A stretch of DNA of 64,000 nucleotides from Escherichia phage vB_EcoM_ESCO8. Position numbers and translations under genes: made by a program. The stretch's first letter is position 1; each line of letters opens with the position of its first letter. This document shows positions 10,164 through 49,406 of this stretch, piece after piece. The DNA is taken from the sequence record OM386653.1; one strand, given 5' to 3'. The notes beneath the pieces are model-generated. The model was given only the letters and a program-made list of their open reading frames with translations. It ran no database searches and was not told the DNA's origin.

Positions 10164-11897
10164 TTAGTCAACCTGGATGGTTCCCATAGTACGAAGAACC
10201 TCTACATCAACACGGTTACGGATATCAGTAAATGTTTCATCACGTCCTTCTACTTGTGGTGTAATAACCGTACCATCTCTGAAGATAACTTGTAACTCAT
10301 TGTCTTCATCTTGGATATCTTTAAAAGAAAGATTATCCACAAGAGAAAGTTTACCATTTGTATCCTTAACAACCTTAATAAAACCTTTTGCAGAGCGTTT
10401 ACCAGGGTCAGTTTTAGGCTCTTTACTTACCAAAATTTCGTGTTCACCGATGATACTACCTGTTGCTTTAACAGCAAAACCAAAAGTATCTCGTGTATTG
10501 AACTGATAAGTATAACTACCAACACCAAATACAATATTGGAAGCTGCAAAACCTTTCTTCTTCAGTCGGCGTAAGATCTCGTGTTCTCGTTCAACAGTAA
10601 TAGAATCACCATAAATCATACCGATGTGCTGATCAAGAACCTTGTAGCCTTTTCGGTTGATAGTACCACCAAACACTTCCCAAAGGATTTGAATAGAACC
10701 TACTGCTTCACAATAAGGAATCTCATAAGTTTCATCAATACAATCAGCAACACTGCAATCCTGAAGAACATTGTAATACTTATTAACATCAGCCAAATGA
10801 ACTACTTCAGTGGCTGTAGCAATACCATTATTTAAAAGGTCTTCATAGTTAGCAAAAGATTCAACATTGTATCCTGCAACAACTTTAACCGGATCTCCTG
10901 AATCTGGACGAATAACAAGACGACCATTTCGTGACATAATGGATTCTTTCAATTCTACCAGAATGCGAGTCAAGACAGCCCAGTAATCATAAGAATCTGC
11001 TACATATGAACAAAAACCTTCTGGAACAATTTCTTCAATATAGCGGCGAAGAAACTCTTTCTCTGCTACATAACGAAGCCCATCAACATCATCTTTAAGA
11101 TGTGGGAAATGTTTCTTCAGATCTTCAACAATAGCTCCAATGTTAGTCGTTGCTACTGAATGTTCTGTTGCAGGAATAGAACCTGCAACAAACTGGTCAT
11201 AATCAATACCATAATAATCATGCACAGTTTCAATAGCCAGAATATTATCTGTTCCTGTGAAAGATGCCAAATGAGCGATACCACTCTTATAACCATCTTC
11301 GATATTACTTAAACCACGTAGGCTAAAATCATGACACTGGAAGTTAACGTGATCAATATTATCACACGTTGCCATCGCATATGCCATAGCAATACGCTTA
11401 TACTGAAAAGCTGCTGTAGCATTAGTCATTGTCTTCCAAGTTTCATCTGACAATAGTGTTTCCACATAGTTAGTTAACCAAAAGAATTTTTCTAAAGTAT
11501 TATGCACAGTAAACACAGGAACACCAATAGGACACAAAACACCTTCTGGCAGAGATCGAACTTCCAGCGGAAGATAACCTAAATCGTGCAATTCTCCCCA
11601 ACATTCAGCAGAAGGAGCAGAAGCACCTAATGCATTTTTAGACATACGATAAAATTTATTTACTGCTGCACTACGAGACATTTTAAAGAAGCTATCCCAC
11701 ATAGTTACAAGAGCATCAGTAACTGCTCGACGAATACCTAAAACAATTACACCACGTGCTTCACGATCTGCATAGTGTGCAAAGTTTTTATCATTACGAG
11801 GAGTTAAATTAGAGAAAATGAGTTTTGTATTTTGGTTGTACATCTGCTTGTGACCAGGCTTATACCAATCAGTAGCAAAAGGTGCAAAAATATTCAT
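10164..11897 (-). CDS. Nicotinamide phosphoribosyltransferase family protein (NAMPT/NadV-like; possibly Namat-type)
   Basis: 577 aa, NAMPT-like N-terminus and length; AAGGAGA RBS. Confidence 0.75.
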   Translation of the reverse strand: MNIFAPFATDWYKPGHKQMYNQNTKLIFSNLTPRNDKNFAHYADREARGVIVLGIRRAVTDALVTMWDSFFKMSRSAAVNKFYRMSKNALGASAPSAECWGELHDLGYLPLEVRSLPEGVLCPIGVPVFTVHNTLEKFFWLTNYVETLLSDETWKTMTNATAAFQYKRIAMAYAMATCDNIDHVNFQCHDFSLRGLSNIEDGYKSGIAHLASFTGTDNILAIETVHDYYGIDYDQFVAGSIPATEHSVATTNIGAIVEDLKKHFPHLKDDVDGLRYVAEKEFLRRYIEEIVPEGFCSYVADSYDYWAVLTRILVELKESIMSRNGRLVIRPDSGDPVKVVAGYNVESFANYEDLLNNGIATATEVVHLADVNKYYNVLQDCSVADCIDETYEIPYCEAVGSIQILWEVFGGTINRKGYKVLDQHIGMIYGDSITVEREHEILRRLKKKGFAASNIVFGVGSYTYQFNTRDTFGFAVKATGSIIGEHEILVSKEPKTDPGKRSAKGFIKVVKDTNGKLSLVDNLSFKDIQDEDNELQVIFRDGTVITPQVEGRDETFTDIRNRVDVEVLRTMGTIQVD

Positions 11898-11968
11898 AGT
11901 TATGTCTCCTTGTTTGTTAGTGTGGGAGTATCTTACTAAGCATACTCCCTATTGTCAACACTTATTAT

Positions 11969-12862
11969 TTAAAAATTCCACACGTATGGAGATACAATTT
12001 GTTGTTGCAAATCTGACTGATTCTTAACAAGAACACAGGAATCTTCTTGGATGTTATCTTCCCACACATTAAGAGAATGAATGCAGTCAAAGTGCTCACT
12101 TAACTCTTTAAGACCTTTAGAAAAGATACCGTGTGTAACATATAACTCAATCTTACCTGCGTTACGAGCACGTAGCACTTTAGCCAATTCAATAAAAGTT
12201 CTACCTCCGTCACAGATATCATCTACGATCATCAGGTTACGCTTATTGAAATCCTGTACAGAAATGTCTGTACGAACAATAGCACCTGTTGCAGTATCTC
12301 TAACCTTCTCTGCACAGAACACATCTAAAGACATTTTCTTAGATAATTTAAATATTTTCTTAAGAGCACCACCATCAGGACTAACAAGAGCAAAATTCTC
12401 CATACGTAACTTCCACTTTAAAGTTTCGTAAGCAATCTCTTCTTGAGGTATTACACAGAGTCTGTCAAACACTGCTGGAGTAACATCGCTATGTGGATCA
12501 GCAACGATAACACGTGAGAAATTTAATGAATTAATTATAGAAGCAAATGCTTTAACTCCGAATGCTTCCCCAGGTTCACACACTCTGTCTTGTCGTGCAT
12601 ATGGCACATACAGCATGAGTAAATCAACACAATATGGTTTATGATATAGCATATTGTCCAATGCATTCTTAGTCATAACCAAAGTCATCAAGTCTTTAGC
12701 AGATCTTACTTCTAAAGAGAGTAAGATTCTGTCTGTAGCATGATTGAAACCTGATAGATTCGTATCTAGTTGAACATGTTGTTCTCCACCAGAGAATGTA
12801 AAGACTTTAACGTCTACATCAGTAACATAACAGTCAACACCATGTAGAATACTAACTTTCAT
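11969..12862 (-). CDS. Ribose-phosphate pyrophosphokinase family protein (Prs-like; possibly Adps-type)
   Basis: 297 aa; VADPHS and DDICDGGRT motifs typical of PRPP synthetase; AAGGAGA RBS. Confidence 0.75.
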   Translation of the reverse strand: MKVSILHGVDCYVTDVDVKVFTFSGGEQHVQLDTNLSGFNHATDRILLSLEVRSAKDLMTLVMTKNALDNMLYHKPYCVDLLMLYVPYARQDRVCEPGEAFGVKAFASIINSLNFSRVIVADPHSDVTPAVFDRLCVIPQEEIAYETLKWKLRMENFALVSPDGGALKKIFKLSKKMSLDVFCAEKVRDTATGAIVRTDISVQDFNKRNLMIVDDICDGGRTFIELAKVLRARNAGKIELYVTHGIFSKGLKELSEHFDCIHSLNVWEDNIQEDSCVLVKNQSDLQQQIVSPYVWNF

Positions 12863-14704: not shown

Positions 14705-14898
14705 TGTTTCTTATTTATTCAGGTAAAGCCAAATACATGCAAGGTGTAAAGCGTGTAGAAGTAGCAGATACTGTAACTATAGGAAAATCCTTTATTCTTT
14801 ATTTGTTTTATATCAATGGAGAAAGATTTGCTGTTTCTAAGAAGTTGGTAGATAATGGTAAAACTTGGAAAGAAGAGAAACAGGAAGGGGGTAGATAG
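14704..14898 (+). CDS. Hypothetical protein
   Basis: ORF track. Confidence 0.4.
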   Translation: MFLIYSGKAKYMQGVKRVEVADTVTIGKSFILYLFYINGERFAVSKKLVDNGKTWKEEKQEGGR

Positions 14899-15239
14899 TG
14901 GCTAAAATTCTTTGGTTAGACGATTTAAGAGATCCTAAAGATTATGGTTATGAGGATGCCATTTGGTTAAAATCTTTTGAGGATTGGTTATCTTTTGTTT
15001 CAGATGAAGATAATTTCAATAATATCTCAGAGATACACTTCGATAATGATCTTGGAGAAGATCAAGAAGGATATCATGCGTTCTTAGACGTAGAATGTAT
15101 GTTGTACGCGGGTGAATGGGATGCTCTTAAAACTATCTATGTTCATACATCAAATCCTTCTGCTGCTGGTAAATATATGTTAGCTAAGGAAAATTTTATT
15201 TCATCCTATGGTGTTGAAATTAAACGTGTTAACTATTAA
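14898..15239 (+). CDS. Hypothetical protein (GTG start)
   Basis: ORF track. Confidence 0.45.
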   Translation: MAKILWLDDLRDPKDYGYEDAIWLKSFEDWLSFVSDEDNFNNISEIHFDNDLGEDQEGYHAFLDVECMLYAGEWDALKTIYVHTSNPSAAGKYMLAKENFISSYGVEIKRVNY

Positions 15240-15394
15240 GTAGGTATTATGCATTACTCAGTTTGGTCAGAGTAAGAAGAGGATGAAGGGCGTTTTATCT
15301 ATAAAGAGGAAGAAAACTGTAACGATATGAGTAATGATCTTTTACTTCCTGATTACAGTTTTTTCGCTGATAGATTAAAAGAGTACGGAGAAAA

Positions 15395-15757
15395 TTGATG
15401 TGCGCTACTAATCAACATGATATTTGTTACCAACCTCTTACTTGGATTGGTGAGGATCACTATGCTCAACGTGTTATAGTATGCGCTGCGAATAAGTATA
15501 TTCTTAACAATGGCGAAGAGTTAATTATTCCTTGTGTTAGGCATGCAAATCCTGTACTATCTGCACAACTTAATGTTTTAAAAGATGCAGGATTGATCGA
15601 TAAACTGTTTTGCTTACCTGATAATCAAGGGTTTATTGATCAGTATTATAACTGGTGGAGTCGCAAAGATGCTTATATCATTGCAGATAACGCCAAACAA
15701 ATTAACTACGAAAGAAATGGTCACAACAGTGAACTATTCAGCGAGGGATTATACTAA
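15395..15757 (+). CDS. Hypothetical protein
   Basis: ORF track; RBS present. Confidence 0.5.
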   Translation: MMCATNQHDICYQPLTWIGEDHYAQRVIVCAANKYILNNGEELIIPCVRHANPVLSAQLNVLKDAGLIDKLFCLPDNQGFIDQYYNWWSRKDAYIIADNAKQINYERNGHNSELFSEGLY

Positions 15758-16308
15758 TGTTTATTACAAGTGATTTGCATTTTATGCACAAACGTATCCG
15801 AGAGTTTGCTCCTGAATATCGCCCGTGGGAAGATATGGAGCATATGACAGAAGCACTGATCGAAGCATGGAATAAATGTGCCACAACACCAGGAGTAAAG
15901 ATGTACCATCTTGGGGACTTCTGTTTCGGGACTGAAGAAGATACCCGTAAGATTGCTTCCCGTCTCCAAGGAGATATTACTTACTGTGTTGGGAACCATG
16001 ATTACAGTAAACACAGAAAAGTGCTTGCAGAGTATGGAGAAGTGGTTTATTATGACGAAGTGAAATATCAGAAGCTGTTTTTCGTCTTAAGCCATTACCC
16101 TATGGCTGCCTGGAATAAACAAGGGCATGGATCAATCATGCTACACGGACACTCTCACGGATCATTCCCTGATCATTTGTATGGGAAAATGTTGGATGTT
16201 GGTTGGGACGCACACGGGAAAATCTTGCATTTTGACGAAATCATCTCTATTATGGATAAGCGTGATATTGTTGTTGTAGATCATCATAAGATAATCAAAG
16301 GAGATTAA
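15757..16308 (+). CDS. Calcineurin-like metallophosphoesterase
   Basis: Motifs DLHFMH, GDFCFG, GNHD, HGHSH. Confidence 0.7.
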   Translation: MFITSDLHFMHKRIREFAPEYRPWEDMEHMTEALIEAWNKCATTPGVKMYHLGDFCFGTEEDTRKIASRLQGDITYCVGNHDYSKHRKVLAEYGEVVYYDEVKYQKLFFVLSHYPMAAWNKQGHGSIMLHGHSHGSFPDHLYGKMLDVGWDAHGKILHFDEIISIMDKRDIVVVDHHKIIKGD

Positions 16309-16309
16309 G

Positions 16310-17242
16310 GTGGCTAAGTTCAATTGTGATGACCTGATTGCAAAAGGTTTAGTGCATAAAAAAGAAGTTAAATCTGGAGAGTATGCTGGTCTTGCTGTAC
16401 TTAAATACAAAAACAATGTATTCTGGGATAACTTGTGGAACGTTGACAAACGACTTCTAGATTGTCGTGGGTTGGTTGTTGACTCAGAAGACAATGTTGT
16501 TATTTGGCCTTTTACTAAAATCTTTAATCGTTTTGAGAATGGTACAGATCTTCCAGCAGACCAACTTGTAGATGCTGTCCGTAAAGTAAACGGTTTTATG
16601 GCATCTGTAGGTGTGTACAAAGGGAAACTTGTTGTATCAACAACAGGGAGCCTAGAATCAGATTTTGCAATTATGGCAAAGAACCGTATTGTTTCCGAGT
16701 GTGACGACATAGAGTATTTCATTAAGTGGACAGAAAGTGCAAAAGCAACTTTTCTTTTTGAAATCTGTGATCCTTCTGATCCACATATTGTCGAAGAAGA
16801 ACCAGGCGCATACTTAATTGGAGCAAGAATTCAAAATCTTGATGGGACAAGTTTCATGTTACCTGAAGGTGTTCTTGATGGGATTGCATCTGTTACAAAG
16901 TTTAAACGTCCTGAAGTTTATCCGATGATTAAATTTTCAGATGTTGTTGAAATGTCTAAACATTGTAGACACGAAGGCTTTGTTGTTCGTGAAACAAACT
17001 ACCCGTTTAACTTACTCTTAAAGATTAAGTCACCATACTATCTTGCTAAGAAGTTCCTTATGCGTGGTGGCAATAAGAAGTGGGATATGATTTGGGACAA
17101 CCCAAAAAATGCTAAAGAAATTGTTGACGAAGAATATTATACTTTGCTAGAATGGCTTCGAAATAATTTTACGAAGGTTCAGTGGGCTGCTCTAGATCCA
17201 CAAGAGCGACGTAAAGAAATAGAAAACTTCTTTGGAGGCTAA
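16310..17242 (+). CDS. RNA-ligase-like nucleotidyltransferase (GTG start)
   Basis: KxNG motif (RKVNGF); position between phosphoesterase and kinase. Confidence 0.55.
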   Translation: MAKFNCDDLIAKGLVHKKEVKSGEYAGLAVLKYKNNVFWDNLWNVDKRLLDCRGLVVDSEDNVVIWPFTKIFNRFENGTDLPADQLVDAVRKVNGFMASVGVYKGKLVVSTTGSLESDFAIMAKNRIVSECDDIEYFIKWTESAKATFLFEICDPSDPHIVEEEPGAYLIGARIQNLDGTSFMLPEGVLDGIASVTKFKRPEVYPMIKFSDVVEMSKHCRHEGFVVRETNYPFNLLLKIKSPYYLAKKFLMRGGNKKWDMIWDNPKNAKEIVDEEYYTLLEWLRNNFTKVQWAALDPQERRKEIENFFGG

Positions 17243-17647
17243 ATGAAACAACTTATCATTTTACGTGGTGTTTCAGGCGCAGGTAAATCTACAGTAGCAG
17301 AAATTATTTCTGAAGGTTATTGGCCTATCTGTGAGGCAGATCAATATCATTACACAGAAAACGGTGTTTACGATTGGAAGCCAGAAAATGTAGGTAAAGC
17401 ACACGCATGGTGTCAGAGTATTGTTCGTGATGCTATGGCATCTAATATTAAAAAGATTATTGTCTCTAACACTTCAACCACAGAGAAAGAACTTAAACCT
17501 TATTTTACTATTGCTGAAGAGTTTGGTTATCAAGTTATCTCTTTAGTTGTTGAAAATAGGCACGGTAACGACTCAATTCATGAGGTTCCACAACATATTC
17601 GTGATCAGCAAGAGAAACGTCTTCGCAGTTCACTTAAGCTACAATAA
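17243..17647 (+). CDS. P-loop polynucleotide-kinase-like protein
   Basis: Walker A GVSGAGKST near N-terminus; 134 aa. Confidence 0.65.
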   Translation: MKQLIILRGVSGAGKSTVAEIISEGYWPICEADQYHYTENGVYDWKPENVGKAHAWCQSIVRDAMASNIKKIIVSNTSTTEKELKPYFTIAEEFGYQVISLVVENRHGNDSIHEVPQHIRDQQEKRLRSSLKLQ

Positions 17648-17656
17648 GGAGAGTGT

Positions 17657-17977
17657 ATGGAAATTTATTCTGGTGAAGGTAAGTATTTTACAGTAGTCGA
17701 TAATGGTGAAATTATTATTTATCGCTACGGAAGTGAGTGGAGGAACGAGACAGGAGACGGCTATATCTTATCTTTGCTCAGTTTGATTAATGATCTTACG
17801 GAAGAACTTGAAGAAACAAAACGTTCATATGATGATCAAGTAGATTCATTAGAAAACATTATTTCAGATCTAAATGAAGAAGTTTCTTGTTTGAATGAAC
17901 AAGTTTCAGAGTTAACACTGGAATGTGAAGATTTAAATGATGTTATTGCAGATTTAAATGAACGTCTTAAGGATTAA
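17657..17977 (+). CDS. Hypothetical coiled-coil protein
   Basis: ORF track; heptad-like repeats. Confidence 0.45.
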   Translation: MEIYSGEGKYFTVVDNGEIIIYRYGSEWRNETGDGYILSLLSLINDLTEELEETKRSYDDQVDSLENIISDLNEEVSCLNEQVSELTLECEDLNDVIADLNERLKD

Positions 17978-17980
17978 TAT

Positions 17981-18205
17981 ATGAGCACAGCTATCTATGT
18001 TAAAGGTGTAAGCGAAGATCAACAAATGTTATTTTCATTTGGTGAGAATACTGAAATGGAAGATATGTTTAATGATATCCTTGATGCCCTTTCTTCGGAA
18101 GGGTTCACAATGATTACATACTTTATGGCAACATCTTCTGAATATGTTGATACAGATCTTGAAGATTTGATGGAAGAAATTCAAACTCTTGTGTATAATT
18201 GGTAA
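17981..18205 (+). CDS. Hypothetical acidic protein
   Basis: ORF track. Confidence 0.4.
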   Translation: MSTAIYVKGVSEDQQMLFSFGENTEMEDMFNDILDALSSEGFTMITYFMATSSEYVDTDLEDLMEEIQTLVYNW

Positions 18206-18402
18206 GGTTAACTATGACATTTATTGAAGAACTAACGAGAATTGCAAACGCGCCTAACAGTAGTGAAGATCCTTACTTTATGGTGGATGATTACACTGGT
18301 GGTAATATTGAGGATGCCTATGAACTAGGCAGACTACACGGTGAAATTGAAATGGCTAAATGGGTTCTTTCGCAACTGGAGGTTAAAGATGAAACAAACT
18401 AA
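18199..18402 (+). CDS. Hypothetical protein
   Basis: ORF track. Confidence 0.4.
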   Translation: MVRLTMTFIEELTRIANAPNSSEDPYFMVDDYTGGNIEDAYELGRLHGEIEMAKWVLSQLEVKDETN

Positions 18403-19504
18403 TCCTACATTATATGGTAAAACTTCTACAGGTAAAATTAGACAGTGGTCAGTCTATACCGAAGGTAGTGTTGTAACTGTTGCTCATGGTCAATTAGGTG
18501 GAAAGATCACTAGCAAATCTTATACGGCAGAACCTAAAAATATTGGTCGCTCAAATGAAACAACAGCAGAAGAACAAGCTGAAATAGAAGCTCTTGCCAA
18601 ATGGACAAAGCAAATTAAGAATGGGTATTATAAAACAAAAGAGGAAGCTGAAAACCATGTTCCTTCTACACCCATGAAATGTCAGGATTATAAAGATTAT
18701 GCTGATCGTGTTTTGTTCCCAGGTTATGCACAATATAAATTGAATGGTCTACGTTCAATGATTAACATGCAAGGTGAATGTTTATCTAAAGCTGGAGAGG
18801 TATATAAACTCCCACCTCACTGGGAAGAAATTCCAACCTTCATTAAAGAAGTAGTTGGTCATCCTCTTGACGGTGAAGTTTTTGCTGGTTTGGGTATCCT
18901 TAGCCTTCAACAAATTAATAGTGCGTGGAAAAAGCATAATGCTAACACTCCGCTTCTTAAATACTATGTATATGATGTTCCCGTGCCATCTGTACCATTT
19001 GAGAAGAGGGTTCAAGTTTTGGCTGCTCTCAAAGAAGTTGTTGAAGATAAAGGTTTAGATGAACTCATTTGTGTAGTACATACAGAGTACATTGAAAACC
19101 AAGAGCAGTTTGATGCTTTCTATGCAAAAGCTCTACGTGAGAAAGCGGAAGGTGTGGTGTATCGTAACGCACAAGGTGTTTACGAGTTTGATAAACGTTC
19201 TTATGATGTTATTAAACGTAAACCACGGCAGACGCTTGAAGTTAAAGTGGTAAGTGCAAAGCGTGATAAAAATGGTGACGGGGTATTGACAGGCGAGATG
19301 GAAAATGGTAAAGTAGTCGAATTCCTGATGCGTAAGGATTCAGATGAAACCATTAACTATCGTAAAGCAGAAAATGCCGAAATGTTAATTGGTAAATTTG
19401 TTGAGATTGAGTATGAAGAGTTTTCCGATGGTGGAATACCTACGAAACCAACAGGTGTCCGTTTACGGGAAATGGTGGAGGGAACATGGGAGCCAAGAGA
19501 GTAG
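18390..19504 (+). CDS. ATP-dependent DNA ligase (probable)
   Basis: Motif I KLNGLR; ~370 aa; start at ATG after GAGGT RBS. Confidence 0.6.
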
Positions 19505-20115
19505 ACCTTGTAGGTAAGAAATGCGGTTGTTATACTGTCTTAGAAGAGATTGAAAGGGACAAACATGGCAAAAGACGTTTTACTTGTTCTTGTGATTGTG
19601 GTAATATTTGCACGGTAACTATGGAAACACTTAGGAAGAGTAGAAGTTCTTATTGTTCCAAGTGTAGACCGAAAACAACACAAACAGGAGCATACAAATC
19701 GTGGGAAGCTATGTTAGGGAGATGCTATAACAAAAACAATACTCACTTTGAATACTACGGTGGTCGTGGTATTAAGGTTTGTGATGCTTGGAGAAATTCA
19801 TTCTCTGCATTCTTTGAGGATATGGGAGATAGACCTAAAGGTTTATCTCTTGACAGAATAGACTCGGAAAAAGATTACAGTAAAGAAAATTGTCGCTGGG
19901 CTACAAGGTCTGTCCAGTCATACAATACACGAAAACAGAAAAATAACACTTCTGGTAAAACAGGTGTTGTGTGGAGCGAGAAAGAAAAAAGATGGATTGC
20001 TCGTATATCCTATCAAGGAAAAGATATCCGTCTTGGAGCATTTATTGATATTGAAGATGCTATATCAGCAAGACAGGAAGCTGAAGTATTGTATTTTGGT
20101 AAGATTAAAACATAA
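19486..20115 (+). CDS. AP2-domain/zinc-finger endonuclease-like protein (possible homing endonuclease)
   Basis: N-terminal Cys cluster; C-terminal AP2-like VVWSEKEKRWIARISYQGKDIRLGAF. Confidence 0.55.
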   Translation: MGAKRVDLVGKKCGCYTVLEEIERDKHGKRRFTCSCDCGNICTVTMETLRKSRSSYCSKCRPKTTQTGAYKSWEAMLGRCYNKNNTHFEYYGGRGIKVCDAWRNSFSAFFEDMGDRPKGLSLDRIDSEKDYSKENCRWATRSVQSYNTRKQKNNTSGKTGVVWSEKEKRWIARISYQGKDIRLGAFIDIEDAISARQEAEVLYFGKIKT

Positions 20116-20126
20116 AGGAGGTTGCA

Positions 20127-20318
20127 ATGAACATTGAAGTTATTTTGATTCTTGTGTTGCTTTCTCTTGTTGCTTGTGGTATAATTTTCGCATCAACTTT
20201 CCCTCACCCAACATGGTGGCAGAAGGTTAGTCTGATGATTGTCTACGGTGCAGCAGGTGTACAAATGGGTGCAGTTGTTGTATATCTGGTGGAATTTACA
20301 AAACAATATTTTAAATAA
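20127..20318 (+). CDS. Small membrane protein (2 TM)
   Basis: ORF track; hydrophobic helices. Confidence 0.5.
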   Translation: MNIEVILILVLLSLVACGIIFASTFPHPTWWQKVSLMIVYGAAGVQMGAVVVYLVEFTKQYFK

Positions 20319-20327
20319 GGAGAAACA

Positions 20328-21050
20328 ATGATTGAGAATTTTTTTAAACAAGTAAAAGTGGACAATAGCTTCTTTATCAAAGCTGCCGATCAAATTGTTG
20401 CTTGGAATGCTAAGGCACGTGGTGGAGTAACTCCAGAATTTACTCAAGAGATGTTTGAAGCTCAACTTTCTTTTGTACGCGAAGAACTAAAAGAGTTTCA
20501 AGCAGCAGCACAGGAAAATGATCACGTTGAATTACTTGATGCAGCAGCAGATATTTTTGTGGTAGCCTCCTACCTGGCGTTTATGTTCTTTGGTAAAGAA
20601 GGTGTTGATAAAGCTCTGGAAATGCCAACAGGAGATGTTCTGGCAGAGAACATTTACGATGTTATCATTGAATTTGATAAAATGGTAGAAAATGACTTGC
20701 AATTTGCCTTAATGTCTCTTACACTTACCCGTATGGCACGAGATACTTTGGTGCGTTCTGTTTATAACGAGAAGAAGGTTATGCGTGAAGTGTTGAATAG
20801 CAATGAGTCCAAGTATCCTACCAAGAAGCAACTCCTGGCTATTTGGGAAACTAAGGATATTATTGAAGCTCTTGAAAAAGAGTGCGATGCTATCGAGATG
20901 CGAAGCAAAGATCGTGCAGAAGGTTCTTATACTGGGGTACATGCTGTATATAACGAAGTTCAAAAGGTGTACGTATTCTTTGATGACAAAGGTAAAATTA
21001 TGAAACCATCTACCTTTGTTAAACCTAATATCGCAGCAATCATTGCTTAA
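20328..21050 (+). CDS. MazG-like nucleoside triphosphate pyrophosphohydrolase (possible dNTPase)
   Basis: All-alpha acidic motifs (EELKEF, ELLDAAADI). Confidence 0.5.
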   Translation: MIENFFKQVKVDNSFFIKAADQIVAWNAKARGGVTPEFTQEMFEAQLSFVREELKEFQAAAQENDHVELLDAAADIFVVASYLAFMFFGKEGVDKALEMPTGDVLAENIYDVIIEFDKMVENDLQFALMSLTLTRMARDTLVRSVYNEKKVMREVLNSNESKYPTKKQLLAIWETKDIIEALEKECDAIEMRSKDRAEGSYTGVHAVYNEVQKVYVFFDDKGKIMKPSTFVKPNIAAIIA

Positions 21051-42055: not shown

Positions 42056-42628
42056 ATGCGTTTAGCTTTTAACGGGAAGATAAGCACAGCAAACATATTA
42101 TCAGCCATAGGATTATTAGGTAAAAAATTCACACCTTTCAGTTTACCTGTTTGTGTAGATTTTGATCATGTATTTGATATTAATAATCCTTCACGTTGTA
42201 TCGCCAGAAGTAATATTGATAACCCAAGTGAAAATCTGTTTTATATTACTAAACCATCCCAGGCAATTTTGAATCAATGGGAAGCAGGTCTGATTAAACC
42301 AGGTAAATATTTTGCATTACTACCTTGTAAATCATTGGCTATAGAGGACAGTCTAAACTATGCAAACAATCTTGTTGTTACAGCATTCATTGTCTCAGAA
42401 AAAGAAGAAACTGCGGCACTTGCAAACACTGTTAAATCTTTGTATGATGCTTTGGGTGTTACTTACACTACCTTCGTTTGTGAAGATATTCCACATTGCG
42501 TTGAATTCGTGGTGAATGGTGTAACTGTATGTCGTGTAGAAACAACTCAAGACGAAGACGTTTTTATTACTGTAGCCGATGTAATATCTGAACCTGTGTT
42601 TAGCTACGCAGTTTCATTAACACATTAA
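42056..42628 (+). CDS. Hypothetical protein
   Basis: ORF track. Confidence 0.45.
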   Translation: MRLAFNGKISTANILSAIGLLGKKFTPFSLPVCVDFDHVFDINNPSRCIARSNIDNPSENLFYITKPSQAILNQWEAGLIKPGKYFALLPCKSLAIEDSLNYANNLVVTAFIVSEKEETAALANTVKSLYDALGVTYTTFVCEDIPHCVEFVVNGVTVCRVETTQDEDVFITVADVISEPVFSYAVSLTH

Positions 42629-44038: not shown

Positions 44039-44617
44039 ATGAGCGATTTATTCTACACAGGTGTTGGTAGCAGAGATATTACAGACGAAGAATGGGATAC
44101 TATGGTATCTGTTGCAAAATGGCTATCTACATGGTTCATTTTGCGATCTGGTAAAGCAGAAGGTGCAGATTCCGCATTTGAATGCGGGGTATATGATAGT
44201 GGGAACAATACAAAGAAAGAAATATACATCCCTTGGCTCTCGTTTAAAGGTAATGAAATAGAGGGAGAGGTTATTGTTCTTGACAGACCAGATAGTGTAA
44301 ACTATGCTTTAACCTTGCAATATGCAAAAGAATTGCATCCAGCTTGGGACAGATTATCTCAAGGTGCTAAAAAATTACATCAAAGAAATATCCACCAAGT
44401 TCTTGGAAGAGATCTTGAGAATCCAAAACCATCTTGTTTTCTTTTAGCTTGTGCAAATACAGATAAAAATGGAGATCCTTTAGGTGGTACAAGAACAGCT
44501 TGGATGTTGGCTAAAAAGTTTAATGTTCCTTGTTTTAATATTCGAGGTAAAAGTAAAAAACAAATTTTCGAATTTATTAAGCCTATTTTAGAGGAGAATG
44601 GTCTTGTCCAGAAATAA
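44039..44617 (+). CDS. DprA/Smf-like Rossmann-fold protein (putative)
   Basis: ORF track 43922..44617 trimmed to ATG after AAGGAGAA; motifs GVGSRD and SGKAEGADSAFE. Confidence 0.4.
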   Translation: MSDLFYTGVGSRDITDEEWDTMVSVAKWLSTWFILRSGKAEGADSAFECGVYDSGNNTKKEIYIPWLSFKGNEIEGEVIVLDRPDSVNYALTLQYAKELHPAWDRLSQGAKKLHQRNIHQVLGRDLENPKPSCFLLACANTDKNGDPLGGTRTAWMLAKKFNVPCFNIRGKSKKQIFEFIKPILEENGLVQK

Positions 44618-45379: not shown

Positions 45380-45404
45380 AAACCCGCTTCGGCGGGTTTT
45401 TTGT
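45380..45404 (+). terminator. Rho-independent terminator (ACCCGC-TTCG-GCGGGT + TTTTTG)
   Basis: Canonical stem-loop and T-run. Confidence 0.75.
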
Positions 45405-46984: not shown

Positions 46985-47593
46985 ATGACTCAAAAAGTTG
47001 CATATCAAGTAGATCGTGAAGATGGTGAAGGTAGTGTTGTAGTTTTTGATACACATGGTCTTGCAGCAAGACGCAAAGGTGCTTGTCTACTGGACATTGG
47101 TGGTGAAGATGAATACTGCACTGTACGTAGAGTAAAAGAATTTGATCAATATGCTGAAAAAGGTTTTGTACCCGTGAAAGCACTATTAGAAGCTGGATGG
47201 TGGATACCTAGTGCACATGATTATGATATTTTGGAAGATACAGATGAATTCAACAGTGAAGATTTTGTTTTTTCTCTGGATGAAAAATGTGTTTGGAAAA
47301 ACTGGGATGAAATGGAACGCCATGCTTATTTTATAAACGAAGCATTAGATCGTAAAACTTGGTTTGAAAATACAGTTAAAGCAGCGTATCCTCAATTTAC
47401 TTTTACACAGTTTTGGGGTGGCCCACATCATATTACTCATACAGCATATTTCGAGTTCCCAGGTTCACGTTATAAAGGTACTGTTTATTGGGATTGGGAC
47501 GAGAACAAAGAACCTTCTGCTCAAGATTTCCGTTGCTATGTTTGTCAAGGTGATCAAGAAGCCCTTGACAAGTACCTTAAAAGTCTGGTATAA
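46985..47593 (+). CDS. Hypothetical protein
   Basis: ORF track. Confidence 0.5.
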   Translation: MTQKVAYQVDREDGEGSVVVFDTHGLAARRKGACLLDIGGEDEYCTVRRVKEFDQYAEKGFVPVKALLEAGWWIPSAHDYDILEDTDEFNSEDFVFSLDEKCVWKNWDEMERHAYFINEALDRKTWFENTVKAAYPQFTFTQFWGGPHHITHTAYFEFPGSRYKGTVYWDWDENKEPSAQDFRCYVCQGDQEALDKYLKSLV

Positions 47594-47610
47594 TCCGTAA
47601 AACTTAACCA

Positions 47611-47636
47611 AAGCCCCAATCAGGGGCTTTATTTGT
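47611..47636 (+). terminator. Rho-independent terminator (GCCCC-AATCA-GGGGC + TTTATTT)
   Basis: Stem-loop and T-run. Confidence 0.6.
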
Positions 47637-47647
47637 GTGGAGGATAT

Positions 47648-48178
47648 ATGGGTTTTGATGATATGTTATTATATGAGGAGGCTTGTGTGAAAGAAGCTAT
47701 GGCTTTACCAGTTTTATCTATTGATATTACAACAGTAGACACTTTTTCAGATTGTGAAACGTGTGGATCGTATTCGTCTATTGTACATGAAGTTAGTGGG
47801 GATTTAGGCACTTACGAAGATGGAGATTATGCAAGTTGTTTAGGTGATAATCGAGATGGTGAAGTGGCGAATGTTGCAAACTGGATTGCTTCTAAGTTAA
47901 AAGAAAGAAATCGTCCGTTCCCTAATCTTCTTACACCAGAAGCTATGCTTAAAGCTGAACAAGAGATGTATGATTATGGTTATAAAGTAGATTATGACTA
48001 TAATGATCCTAAATATAAAAAATTGAGTGACAAGTATTGGGAACTAGCTAATGCTTATGATAAATACTACTCTACAGAAAACATTGTTAAATTGTTTTTA
48101 GATTTTGGAGTAGAAATTAATTGGGATTTCGAAGAGGAAGAGCGTTACGACGCATCTTCTTGGGATGATGATTACTAA
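47648..48178 (+). CDS. Hypothetical acidic protein
   Basis: ORF track 47633..48178 adjusted to ATG after GGAGG RBS. Confidence 0.45.
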   Translation: MGFDDMLLYEEACVKEAMALPVLSIDITTVDTFSDCETCGSYSSIVHEVSGDLGTYEDGDYASCLGDNRDGEVANVANWIASKLKERNRPFPNLLTPEAMLKAEQEMYDYGYKVDYDYNDPKYKKLSDKYWELANAYDKYYSTENIVKLFLDFGVEINWDFEEEERYDASSWDDDY

Positions 48179-48189
48179 GAGGATATTGA

Positions 48190-49002
48190 ATGCGAAGAGT
48201 AATTTTTGTTAGTGGCGCAGGTTTAAGTGCAGACAGTGGGATTCGAACGTTCCGAACAGACACAGATAGTGGTCGTGCCTTATGGGAAGAATATGACTTA
48301 GAAGAGGTCTGCGATATTGGAGCTTTCCAAGCAGGTTATCGTGTGAGAACATCTCCAGATCTTCCAGTGGTCGGTGGTGTAGACGAGAACGGTATGGACT
48401 TGTATGCCAAAACACACGAATTTTATAACAAAAGACGTGTTGAGCTTAAAGATGTACAACCTAATGCTGCACATATTCAAATAGCAAAGTGGTTTAAGGA
48501 ATATCCTAACCAAGTAGTAAACTTGACAACAAACGTCGATGATCTACTAGAGCGAGCAGGTGTGGACAGGGATTCTGTTATTCACGTGCACGGGTATCTC
48601 CCTGAAGTAGTTTACCGTATGCATCCTGGAGATTACAAAACACTGGTAGACATTGGTTACAATAGTATAAACATAGATGATTATAACTGGGTGAAGCCTA
48701 ATGTTGTATTTTTTGGTGAGGCTGCACCTTTGTATGCAGATATGGCTCACTTGTTTGATACTTTGACCATGCAAGATTTGGTTGTTGTAGTAGGATGTTC
48801 AAACCAAGTTATCAATTTTAATTGGGAATTATTCCCTGCACTTAATATGGGTACAAAAATGATTGTTGTTAACCCAGGAATTAATTACGAAGAAACTCTT
48901 CTTTACGAAGATAGAGGAGTCTTTGTTTACAGAGAAAAGGCAGCAGATGCTTTTAGCAATCCTGCTTTCATAAAAATGATAGAAGATCATTTGACTAAGT
49001 AA
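48190..49002 (+). CDS. Sir2-family (sirtuin-like) NAD-dependent protein, no zinc ribbon
   Basis: Motifs GAGLSADSGIRTFR, TTNVDDL, HVHG. Confidence 0.65.
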   Translation: MRRVIFVSGAGLSADSGIRTFRTDTDSGRALWEEYDLEEVCDIGAFQAGYRVRTSPDLPVVGGVDENGMDLYAKTHEFYNKRRVELKDVQPNAAHIQIAKWFKEYPNQVVNLTTNVDDLLERAGVDRDSVIHVHGYLPEVVYRMHPGDYKTLVDIGYNSINIDDYNWVKPNVVFFGEAAPLYADMAHLFDTLTMQDLVVVVGCSNQVINFNWELFPALNMGTKMIVVNPGINYEETLLYEDRGVFVYREKAADAFSNPAFIKMIEDHLTK

Positions 49003-49008
49003 CTTGAC

Positions 49009-49033
49009 CAAGGGGCGAAAGCCCCTTTTCTTA
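49009..49033 (+). terminator. Rho-independent terminator (GGGGC-GAAA-GCCCC + TTTTCTT)
   Basis: Stem-loop and T-run. Confidence 0.7.
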
Positions 49034-49367: not shown

Positions 49368-49406
49368 ACAAAAGCCCCTAGAAGCGATTCTAGGGGCTTT
49401 ATTTTA
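49368..49406. terminator. Bidirectional terminator at convergent junction (GCCCCTAG-loop-CTAGGGGC)
   Basis: 8-bp perfect stem flanked by A-run and T-run. Confidence 0.7.

Follow-up and report, generated by a model that had tools for sequence, protein, structure and literature searches.

The DNA analysed here, hereafter the window, is a stretch of 64,000 nucleotides from Escherichia phage vB_EcoM_ESCO8 (OM386653.1), and this study concerns an open reading frame (ORF) at 48190..49002 on its forward strand that encodes a Sir2-like protein (sirtuin). Nucleotide comparison confirmed the window as DNA of a Justusliebigvirus (phi92-like) phage, in agreement with the phage origin given in a preliminary description of the sequence: over the 1.8 kb around the sirtuin gene, Escherichia phage AV123 shares 99.5% identity with the window, and the other Justusliebigvirus genomes (phi92-like, Stephanstirmvirinae) among the matches listed share at least 97.6%. 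Phage arall encodes the same protein at 100% identity, annotated in GenBank as 'putative Sir2-like protein', and the counterpart Phi92_gp038 is annotated as a 'putative Sir2-like transferase'. The ORF starts with ATG, and an AAGAGG Shine-Dalgarno sequence is located 5' of the start. The gene and the parts of its product are as follows.

48190..49002, forward strand: sirtuin ORF, 270 amino acids, Phi92_gp038 / T5.102 family, PHROG 2162
48214..48255, forward strand: residues 9-22, GAGLSADSGIRTFR, Rossmann loop binding nicotinamide adenine dinucleotide (NAD+) and start of the cofactor loop; F21 and R22 invariant
48328..48399, forward strand: residues 47-70, insertion of about 22 residues in the helical small domain relative to CobB
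48421..48438, forward strand: residues 78-83, FYNKRR, class III Y-x-x-R motif that aligns with CobB FYNARR
48526..48543, forward strand: residues 113-118, TTNVDD, nicotinamide-pocket motif with N115, V116 and D117 kept and Gln replaced by T114
48583..48594, forward strand: residues 132-135, HVHG, with the catalytic His134
48595..48693, forward strand: residues 136-168, zinc-less ribbon module with predicted beta strands kept
48694..48720, forward strand: residues 169-177, KPNVVFFGE, conserved strand and FGE substrate-cleft motif

SIR2 was the sole Pfam family matched by the 270-residue protein (PF02146, 81 bits against a gathering cut-off of 24, E 1.3e-22), and the match to PHROG 2162, 'Sir2 (NAD-dependent deacetylase)', spans its full length (residues 1-269, E 1.3e-105). 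These matches, together with the motifs GAGLSADSGIRTFR (residues 9-22), TTNVDDLLERAG (residues 113-124) and HVHG (residues 132-135), bear out, well beyond chance, the sirtuin signatures noted in the preliminary description. The best matches in a sequence search of the PDB were the deacylases CobB (E 1.5e-18), Sir2Af2, Sir2Tm and SIRT5. No match to the Pfam family SIR2_2 was found, the PADLOC defence SIR2 models returned only a marginal 13.8-bit fragment (PDC-S65), and the partner genes of such systems were not found. On these family assignments, the phage protein belongs to the deacylase-like sirtuin lineage and not to the defence-type NADases.

Residue conservation was determined in an alignment of 65 homologues with 56-92% identity to the query. 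Positions that are invariant or at least 90% conserved comprise G9-A10-G11, S13, S16-G17 and F21-R22, further Y79, R82 and R83, N115-V116-D117 and H134-G135, as well as K169-P-N-V and F174-F175-x-E177. Y79 and R82 of the Y-x-x-R motif, which is aligned with FYNARR of CobB, are invariant, and so are H134-G135, N115 and D117, while the residue preceding N115 is Thr (T114) and not Gln. The catalytic His and the Rossmann core therefore survive alignment, with H134, N115, D117, F21/R22 and the GAG loop invariant or nearly so. Across the 65 homologues, this pattern indicates purifying selection on all of the deacylase-type active site, the class III acyl-carboxylate motif included.

The structure prediction and comparison proposed in the preliminary description were carried out with AlphaFold2 (AF2). 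The model reached a predicted local distance difference test score (pLDDT) of 92.1 and a predicted template modelling score (pTM) of 0.89, and low confidence was confined to residues 23-29 in the cofactor-binding loop. This loop is mobile in known sirtuins. When the model was compared with the PDB using Foldseek, CobB (1s5p) ranked first (E 1.8e-18, template modelling score (TM) 0.85 on the target), followed by Sir2Af1/Af2, SIRT5, SIRT2 and Sir2Tm, so that the best among the matches listed are deacylase sirtuins. The protein is thus predicted to adopt a two-domain sirtuin fold nearest to CobB and not to NADase sirtuins. A defence-type NADase sirtuin was ruled out on these family and fold grounds. 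The 22-residue insertion (residues 47-70) is carried by the phi92-like, the T5-like and some Vequintavirinae-type members and is missing from two distant loci (L050 and L057) and from most distant relatives.

The sirtuin contains only two cysteines, C41 and C203, and none in residues 134-175. The HG...FFGE segment, which holds four Cys in CobB and in zinc-type relatives, holds none in the phage protein, and the absence of the four zinc cysteines noted before is thereby upheld. When the protein is aligned with 87 Cys4-type relatives, Y142 and H145 stand where those relatives have zinc ligands 1 and 2, whereas a gap replaces the second CxxC knuckle, which is therefore deleted. The AF2 model nevertheless predicts three beta strands in the ribbon region (residues 135-143, 151-154 and 167-172; pLDDT of the block 93-97), and because these strands are still predicted, a ribbon-like module is likely to be retained without metal ligands. 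The protein should thus be described as lacking the zinc ligands, not as lacking the zinc ribbon: of the earlier wording, the loss of the ligands and of the second knuckle stands, while the beta module is still predicted. Zinc loss is a trait of the clade, as each of the 93 close homologues parsed has 0-1 Cys in the segment. Versions with a Cys4 zinc site and TQNID were found on two jumbo viral contigs (L064 and L065) and in the jumbo-phage relative Turkey5 (L067). Since Cys4/TQN versions also occur on jumbo viral contigs, the zinc site was probably lost within virus-associated sirtuins.

Judged from its sequence, the protein is very probably a catalytically competent member of the CobB/SIRT5-like (class III) sirtuins, in a branch that is specific to phages and independent of zinc. 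Our best guess, with a probability of about 0.4, is that it acts as a CobB-like NAD+-dependent protein deacylase, because the residues that define class III are under selection and the nearest sequences and folds are all deacylases. In such a reaction, the enzyme would bind NAD+, an oxygen nucleophile of the substrate would attack ribose C1' with release of nicotinamide, and H134 would then activate the ribose 2'-OH and resolve the intermediate. The likeliest substrate would be an acyl-lysine on a host or phage protein, and the invariant Y79-x-x-R82 suggests that the enzyme would favour acidic acyl groups, of the succinyl or malonyl type, besides acetyl. The resulting nicotinamide and ADP-ribose-type products might in principle be recycled by the NARP1 pair of the phage, which is described below, although this is speculative. 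Skliros et al. (2016; PMC5107563) described the Sir2/CobB proteins of phiSt2, phiGrn1 and KVP40 as devoid of zinc ligands, proposed stabilising salt bridges and listed T5 and other phages as carriers. The homologue of the KVP40 type is transcribed during infection, and a role in the deacetylation of host proteins such as Acs was argued in the same study.

Several observations weigh against protein deacylation. The best matches to the CobB/deacylase models of NCBIfam lie far under the cut-offs (106.5 bits against 243, and 86.6 against 320), and by this measure the sirtuin is not a CobB equivalog. The small domain, which forms half of the substrate cleft, is remodelled. In addition, the exchange of Gln for Thr in TQNID co-varies with zinc loss. 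Among the 133 nearest representatives at 50% identity, counted regardless of shared ancestry and hence not corrected for phylogeny, Thr occupies the Gln position in 32 of the 47 zinc-less ones (0-1 Cys), while 73 of the 86 Cys4-type ones have Gln and 7 have Thr; a second zinc-less type that retains TQN also exists among the relatives. In relatives, the sirtuin gene is surrounded by genes for RNA-end processing, an arrangement that suggests a nucleic acid as the substrate. T4 and lambda-vir are mildly restricted, and not helped, by the CobB of their host (PMC4271551), and an extra generic CobB activity is therefore not obviously useful to a phage. Finally, no biochemical or genetic study of any member of the clade was found in the literature.

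The sirtuin gene is the last of a long rightward series of early and metabolic genes, among them NrdAB, thymidylate synthase, dTDP-sugar enzymes, PhoH, methyltransferases and a calcineurin-like phosphatase. The following features were identified around it.

46985..47593, forward strand: gp041 homologue (PHROG 8514), upstream neighbour, conserved also in the distant loci L050 and L057
47565..47594, forward strand: candidate sigma-70 promoter, TTGACA-18-TATAAT with TG (extended -10), 12/12 consensus positions; a consensus match only, overlapping the gp041 stop codon
47610..47630, forward strand: G+C-rich hairpin between promoter and gp039, within about 15 nt of the promoter
47648..48178, forward strand: gp039 homologue (PHROG 9509), 176 amino acids, annotated without a function, 12 nt upstream of the sirtuin gene
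49010..49027, forward strand: terminator-like hairpin with T-run, 8 nt past the sirtuin stop codon

The promoter at 47565..47594 is the probable start of a gp039-Sir2 transcript, and judging from consensus matches only, gp039 and the sirtuin gene look like a two-gene early unit with its own promoter. The sirtuin would then be made early, together with gp039, from a consensus sigma-70 promoter. In most, but not all, Stephanstirmvirinae-type loci, gp039 accompanies the sirtuin gene. No recognisable domain or informative fold was found for gp041 and gp039. An N-terminal CxxC is present in the gp039 protein, which is very acidic. In the BASEL phage Bas61 EmilieFrey (L066 3049-3579), where the locus is nearly identical, gp039 is labelled 'putative aminoacyl-tRNA synthetase', a label that is unsupported, as no Pfam, NCBIfam, PADLOC or PDB sequence match was obtained.

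The order of promoter and hairpin upstream of gp039 is unusual, and the hairpin would sit in the 5' leader of the gp039-sirtuin transcript, where it may end the upstream operon or stabilise the new transcript. Perfectly symmetric hairpins at 45380-45399, 47610-47630 and 49371-49400 score as terminators on both strands and punctuate the array; the terminator scan returned nine terminator-like sites against 2.5 expected from shuffles. Two upstream ORFs on the forward strand carry PHROG names that may be unreliable, since neither has a Pfam hit at E 0.01: 42056-42628 (190 amino acids, 'histidyl tRNA synthetase') and 44039-44617 (192 amino acids, 'DprA-like DNA recombination-mediator').

The window also contains a block of RNA end-healing and sealing genes, which bears on the substrate of the sirtuin.

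14898..21050, forward strand: RNA end-healing/sealing block
14898-15239, forward strand: cREC, here upstream of the phosphoesterase
15757-16308, forward strand: calcineurin-like phosphoesterase
16310-17242, forward strand: Rnl1-type RNA ligase
17243-17647, forward strand: AAA_33 kinase
18341-19504, forward strand: ATP-dependent DNA ligase
20328-21050, forward strand: MazG-like pyrophosphatase

The gene context of the sirtuin was surveyed in 59 viral loci with proteins of the window, T5, Mydo and JES2013 as probes, the identities of which were confirmed with Pfam. About 12 loci showed a Vequintavirinae-type order, in which Namat/Adps on the divergent strand are followed by phosphoesterase, Rnl1 RNA ligase, cREC, AAA_33 kinase, sirtuin, DNA ligase and MazG; the sirtuins of these loci are 48-60% identical to the query. 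The block in the window has nearly the same order, but the usual sirtuin slot between kinase and DNA ligase is empty and the sirtuin gene is found 30 kb downstream. The T5-like order (NrdD, two small genes, sirtuin, two small genes, HAD_SAK_2 phosphatase, two DUF7415 genes) places a HAD_SAK_2 'Swiss-army-knife RNA repair' phosphatase within about 1 kb after the sirtuin in about 30 loci. No HAD_SAK_2 homologue was found in the window. In the jumbo phage Turkey5 (L067 4965-6265), the sirtuin stop overlaps the start of a NUDIX hydrolase gene, and a PhoH-like gene follows 2 kb downstream; the overlap suggests translational coupling and processing of an ADP-ribose-type product. A further locus (L063), whose sirtuin is 37% identical to the query, has a Nampt-like gene 1.6 kb upstream. 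T5.105 (L004 6142-6648) is named 'Sir2 (NAD-dependent deacetylase)' in RefSeq yet contains a HAD_SAK_2 phosphatase domain (Pfam E 4e-20), and the name seems to have been transferred by mistake from its neighbour T5.102.

These contexts lend weight to the main alternative, that the sirtuin removes a 2'-phosphate from RNA using NAD+ in the manner of Tpt1/KptA, which we consider possible but rather unlikely. Once a metal-independent (anticodon) nuclease has cut the RNA and the 2',3'-cyclic phosphate has been opened, the remaining 2'-phosphate would attack C1'' of NAD+, and H134 would activate the ribose 2''-OH to yield RNA with a 2'-OH and ADP-ribose 1'',2''-cyclic phosphate, formally in parallel to deacylation. 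This function was predicted for exactly this clade by Iyer, Burroughs, Anantharaman and Aravind (2022; PMC9503650 section 3.7.3), who recognised a 'distinct clade of viral sirtuins' and derived KptA-like removal of RNA 2'-phosphates from gene neighbourhoods. In favour of it, the sirtuin is linked with RNA-end-processing genes in three otherwise different genome types (Vequintavirinae-type, T5-like and Turkey5), and the window holds a complete cREC/phosphoesterase/Rnl1/kinase block. The catalytic His and the anion-binding Y/R pair are compatible with a phosphate acceptor, as are the Q-to-T exchange and the remodelled small domain with an altered substrate. That zinc-less phage sirtuins as a group (the T5.102 / Phi92_gp038 clade) are no protein deacylases but Tpt1 analogues of sirtuin fold, stripping 2'-phosphates from nuclease-damaged tRNA or mRNA in the course of infection, with the Q-to-T exchange and zinc loss as marks of the substrate switch, is likewise conceivable but doubtful.

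The same neighbourhoods can be read with more caution. In the window, the sirtuin gene is located about 30 kb from the repair block in a separate transcription unit, and its neighbours gp041, gp039 and gp037 showed no RNA-end-processing domains. Synteny inside one viral subfamily is inherited and does not constitute independent evidence, and the functions of cREC and HAD_SAK_2 are themselves predictions. Moreover, phosphoesterase, kinase and Rnl1 form a complete heal-and-seal set that leaves no 2'-phosphate. The phyletic distributions of the two genes overlap only partially: Rnl1 was found in 754 phage records (Pseudomonas 177, Streptomyces 126, Salmonella 16) and the sirtuin in 983 (Salmonella 289, with Pseudomonas and Streptomyces outside the top ten genera). 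T5-like phages therefore have the sirtuin without this ligase, and many phages with the ligase have no sirtuin. The family is uniformly acidic: the query has a pI of 4.8 and a net charge of -15, the family median pI is 4.9, none of 120 members exceeds pI 7, and no nucleic-acid-binding domain was found in the family. Tpt1/KptA, by comparison, are basic RNA-binders. Both published ideas share the same chemistry, namely attack on C1' of NAD+, loss of nicotinamide and resolution by a His-activated 2'-OH, and the retained His, the N-x-D pocket and the anion-binding Y/R pair fit deacylation and RNA repair alike.

It appears improbable that the enzyme does not deacylate but transfers a single ADP-ribose, for takeover or regulation, to a small molecule or to a protein of host or phage. 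Some sirtuins are dedicated to this activity (PMC9503650 cites the SirTM class), the query retains an intact NAD+ pocket, and the adjacent NUDIX gene in the jumbo phage could process ADP-ribose products. The legacy labels 'ADP-ribosylase' and 'Sir2-like transferase' on T5.102 and Phi92_gp038 point in the same direction but are annotation history and not data. On the other hand, the catalytic His and the Y-x-x-R motif, which are unneeded for simple transfer, are strictly kept, and the nearest sequences and folds are deacylases. Furthermore, no Pfam macrodomain or other ADP-ribose eraser was found in the ten neighbouring ORFs between 42056 and 49300 (gp041, gp039, gp037 and seven upstream).

The preliminary description had also connected the sirtuin with NAD+-based immunity and with a pair of NAD+ salvage genes in the same genome. 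The pair is present:

10164-11897, reverse strand: Namat, Nampt-like, 577 amino acids, matching SpbetaL1 Namat (9W5X/9W5W)
11969-12862, reverse strand: Adps, Prs-like, 297 amino acids

The Nampt-like protein matches the solved SpbetaL1 Namat with E 7e-118 and 398 bits, compared with about 168 bits for true Nampts. On this sequence evidence, the genes at 10164-12862 are the NARP1 pair (Namat and Adps), a counter-defence module and not classical NAD+ salvage. They lie 36 kb from the sirtuin gene on the opposite strand, and in this genome nothing ties them specifically to it. NARP1 of phage Bas63 rebuilds NAD+ from ADP-ribose and nicotinamide and counters SIR2-HerA (NARP papers). In the PhageMaP screen of Bas63 and in the NARP papers, mentions of SIR2 are limited to host SIR2 defence systems.

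A role as NADase or immune-signal enzyme is very improbable. Such an enzyme would break down NAD+ or defence signals derived from ADP-ribose, so that the host is shut off or its NAD+-based immunity blunted. In its favour, the defence sirtuins ThsA, DSR and SIR2-HerA are NADases, and genes for NAD+ reconstitution also occur in phage lineages with the sirtuin: NARP1 in the window, NARP1 at 2.5-8 kb from the sirtuin gene in L061 and in loci of the Vequintavirinae type, and the Nampt-like gene at 1.6 kb in L063. Against it, the protein has no similarity to NADase-type SIR2 models and contains neither a sensor nor a regulatory domain. An unregulated NADase would bring nothing to a phage that rebuilds NAD+ through NARP1, and NARP genes occur in many phages that lack the sirtuin, so that the association may reflect only the clustering of early metabolic genes. 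The proposed link to NAD+-based immunity thus finds no support, given the absence of PADLOC defence-SIR2 and SIR2_2 matches and the resemblance to CobB.

Sirtuins of this kind are widely conserved in virulent enterobacterial phages. In a tblastn search, homologues were detected in 983 of 50,697 phage records, with identities of 52.8% for T5 (T5.102), ~60% for T5-like Salmonella phages, 56% for the Mydo type, 47-48% for rV5-type Vequintavirinae, ~38% for KVP40-like Vibrio phages and ~30% for jumbo phages. A search of 1.84 billion cluster representatives returned 2174 relatives at E <=0.001; since only 26 of them score below 1e-30, the near relatives form a compact family, for the most part of viral or metagenomic origin. 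Domain fusions in longer relatives were limited to WG repeats, an RHS repeat and GIY-YIG and were inconsistent and uninformative. Five records labelled Campylobacter phage (host C. jejuni) matched the locus by megablast, and 25 records with a Campylobacter label carry the sirtuin; such labels are odd for a phi92-like coliphage and suggest mislabelled hosts or contaminant assemblies. The homologue P0069 of Pectobacterium phage DU_PP_V is named 'tail assembly protein', which likewise looks like a misnomer.

As a discovery the gene is ordinary, and the novelty implied in the preliminary description falls away: the gene is annotated in dozens of genomes, and the loss of the zinc site (PMC5107563) and a functional prediction for the clade (PMC9503650) have been published, so that the gene family, the missing zinc site and both functional hypotheses are already in databases and papers. 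The question of its function matters for other reasons. Homologues are present in about 980 of the 50,697 deposited phage genomes, including T5 and several therapy phages, and the substrate NAD+ is the metabolite around which many bacterial anti-phage systems and the NARP counter-measures of phages revolve. If the deacylase interpretation is true, these phages would rewrite host protein acylation early in infection. If a Tpt1-like activity is true, the sirtuin fold would gain a new substrate class, and phages would have a means that depends on NAD+ to answer tRNA-cutting defences, a missing step in counter-defence against anticodon nucleases; the novelty would then lie in the proof, as the prediction dates from 2022.

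Among known systems, ThsA, DSR1/2, SIR2-HerA and SPARSA are part of the same superfamily as the phage sirtuin but of another family (SIR2_2 type) with fused or paired sensor domains. To our knowledge, the defence SIR2 NADases also have no Cys4 zinc ribbon. SirTM is encoded with an operonic macrodomain partner, whereas no macrodomain was found in the ten ORFs neighbouring the query. With Tpt1/KptA the similarity is at most a possible functional analogy, in which NAD+ would serve to remove an anionic group in two steps by way of an ADP-ribosylated intermediate; there is no sequence or fold kinship, as Pfam detected no PTS_2-RNA (Tpt1/KptA) homology and gave SIR2 alone and the best folds are sirtuins.

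The deacetylase/desuccinylase CobB (PDB 1S5P/6RXJ) shares GAGxS, FR, Y-x-x-R, N-I/V-D, HG and FGE with the query, as well as a similar HG-FGE spacing, at about 26% identity; the query differs by the missing zinc Cys, the exchange of Gln for Thr, the extra insertion at residues 47-70 and scores below the NCBIfam cut-offs. The Sir2/CobB proteins of the Vibrio schizoT4-like phages KVP40, phiSt2 and phiGrn1, known from homology modelling and transcript profiling only, show about 38% identity and likewise no zinc ligands, but are shorter and do not have the 22-residue insertion. The closest known group is the PHROG 2162 clade itself (T5.102, Phi92_gp038, rV5/Mydo), of which the query is a member and with which it shares the zinc-less ribbon, TTNVDD and FYNxRR. 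In this phage lineage, however, the gene is located away from the RNA-repair genes and stands with gp041 and gp039 at the end of the early array.

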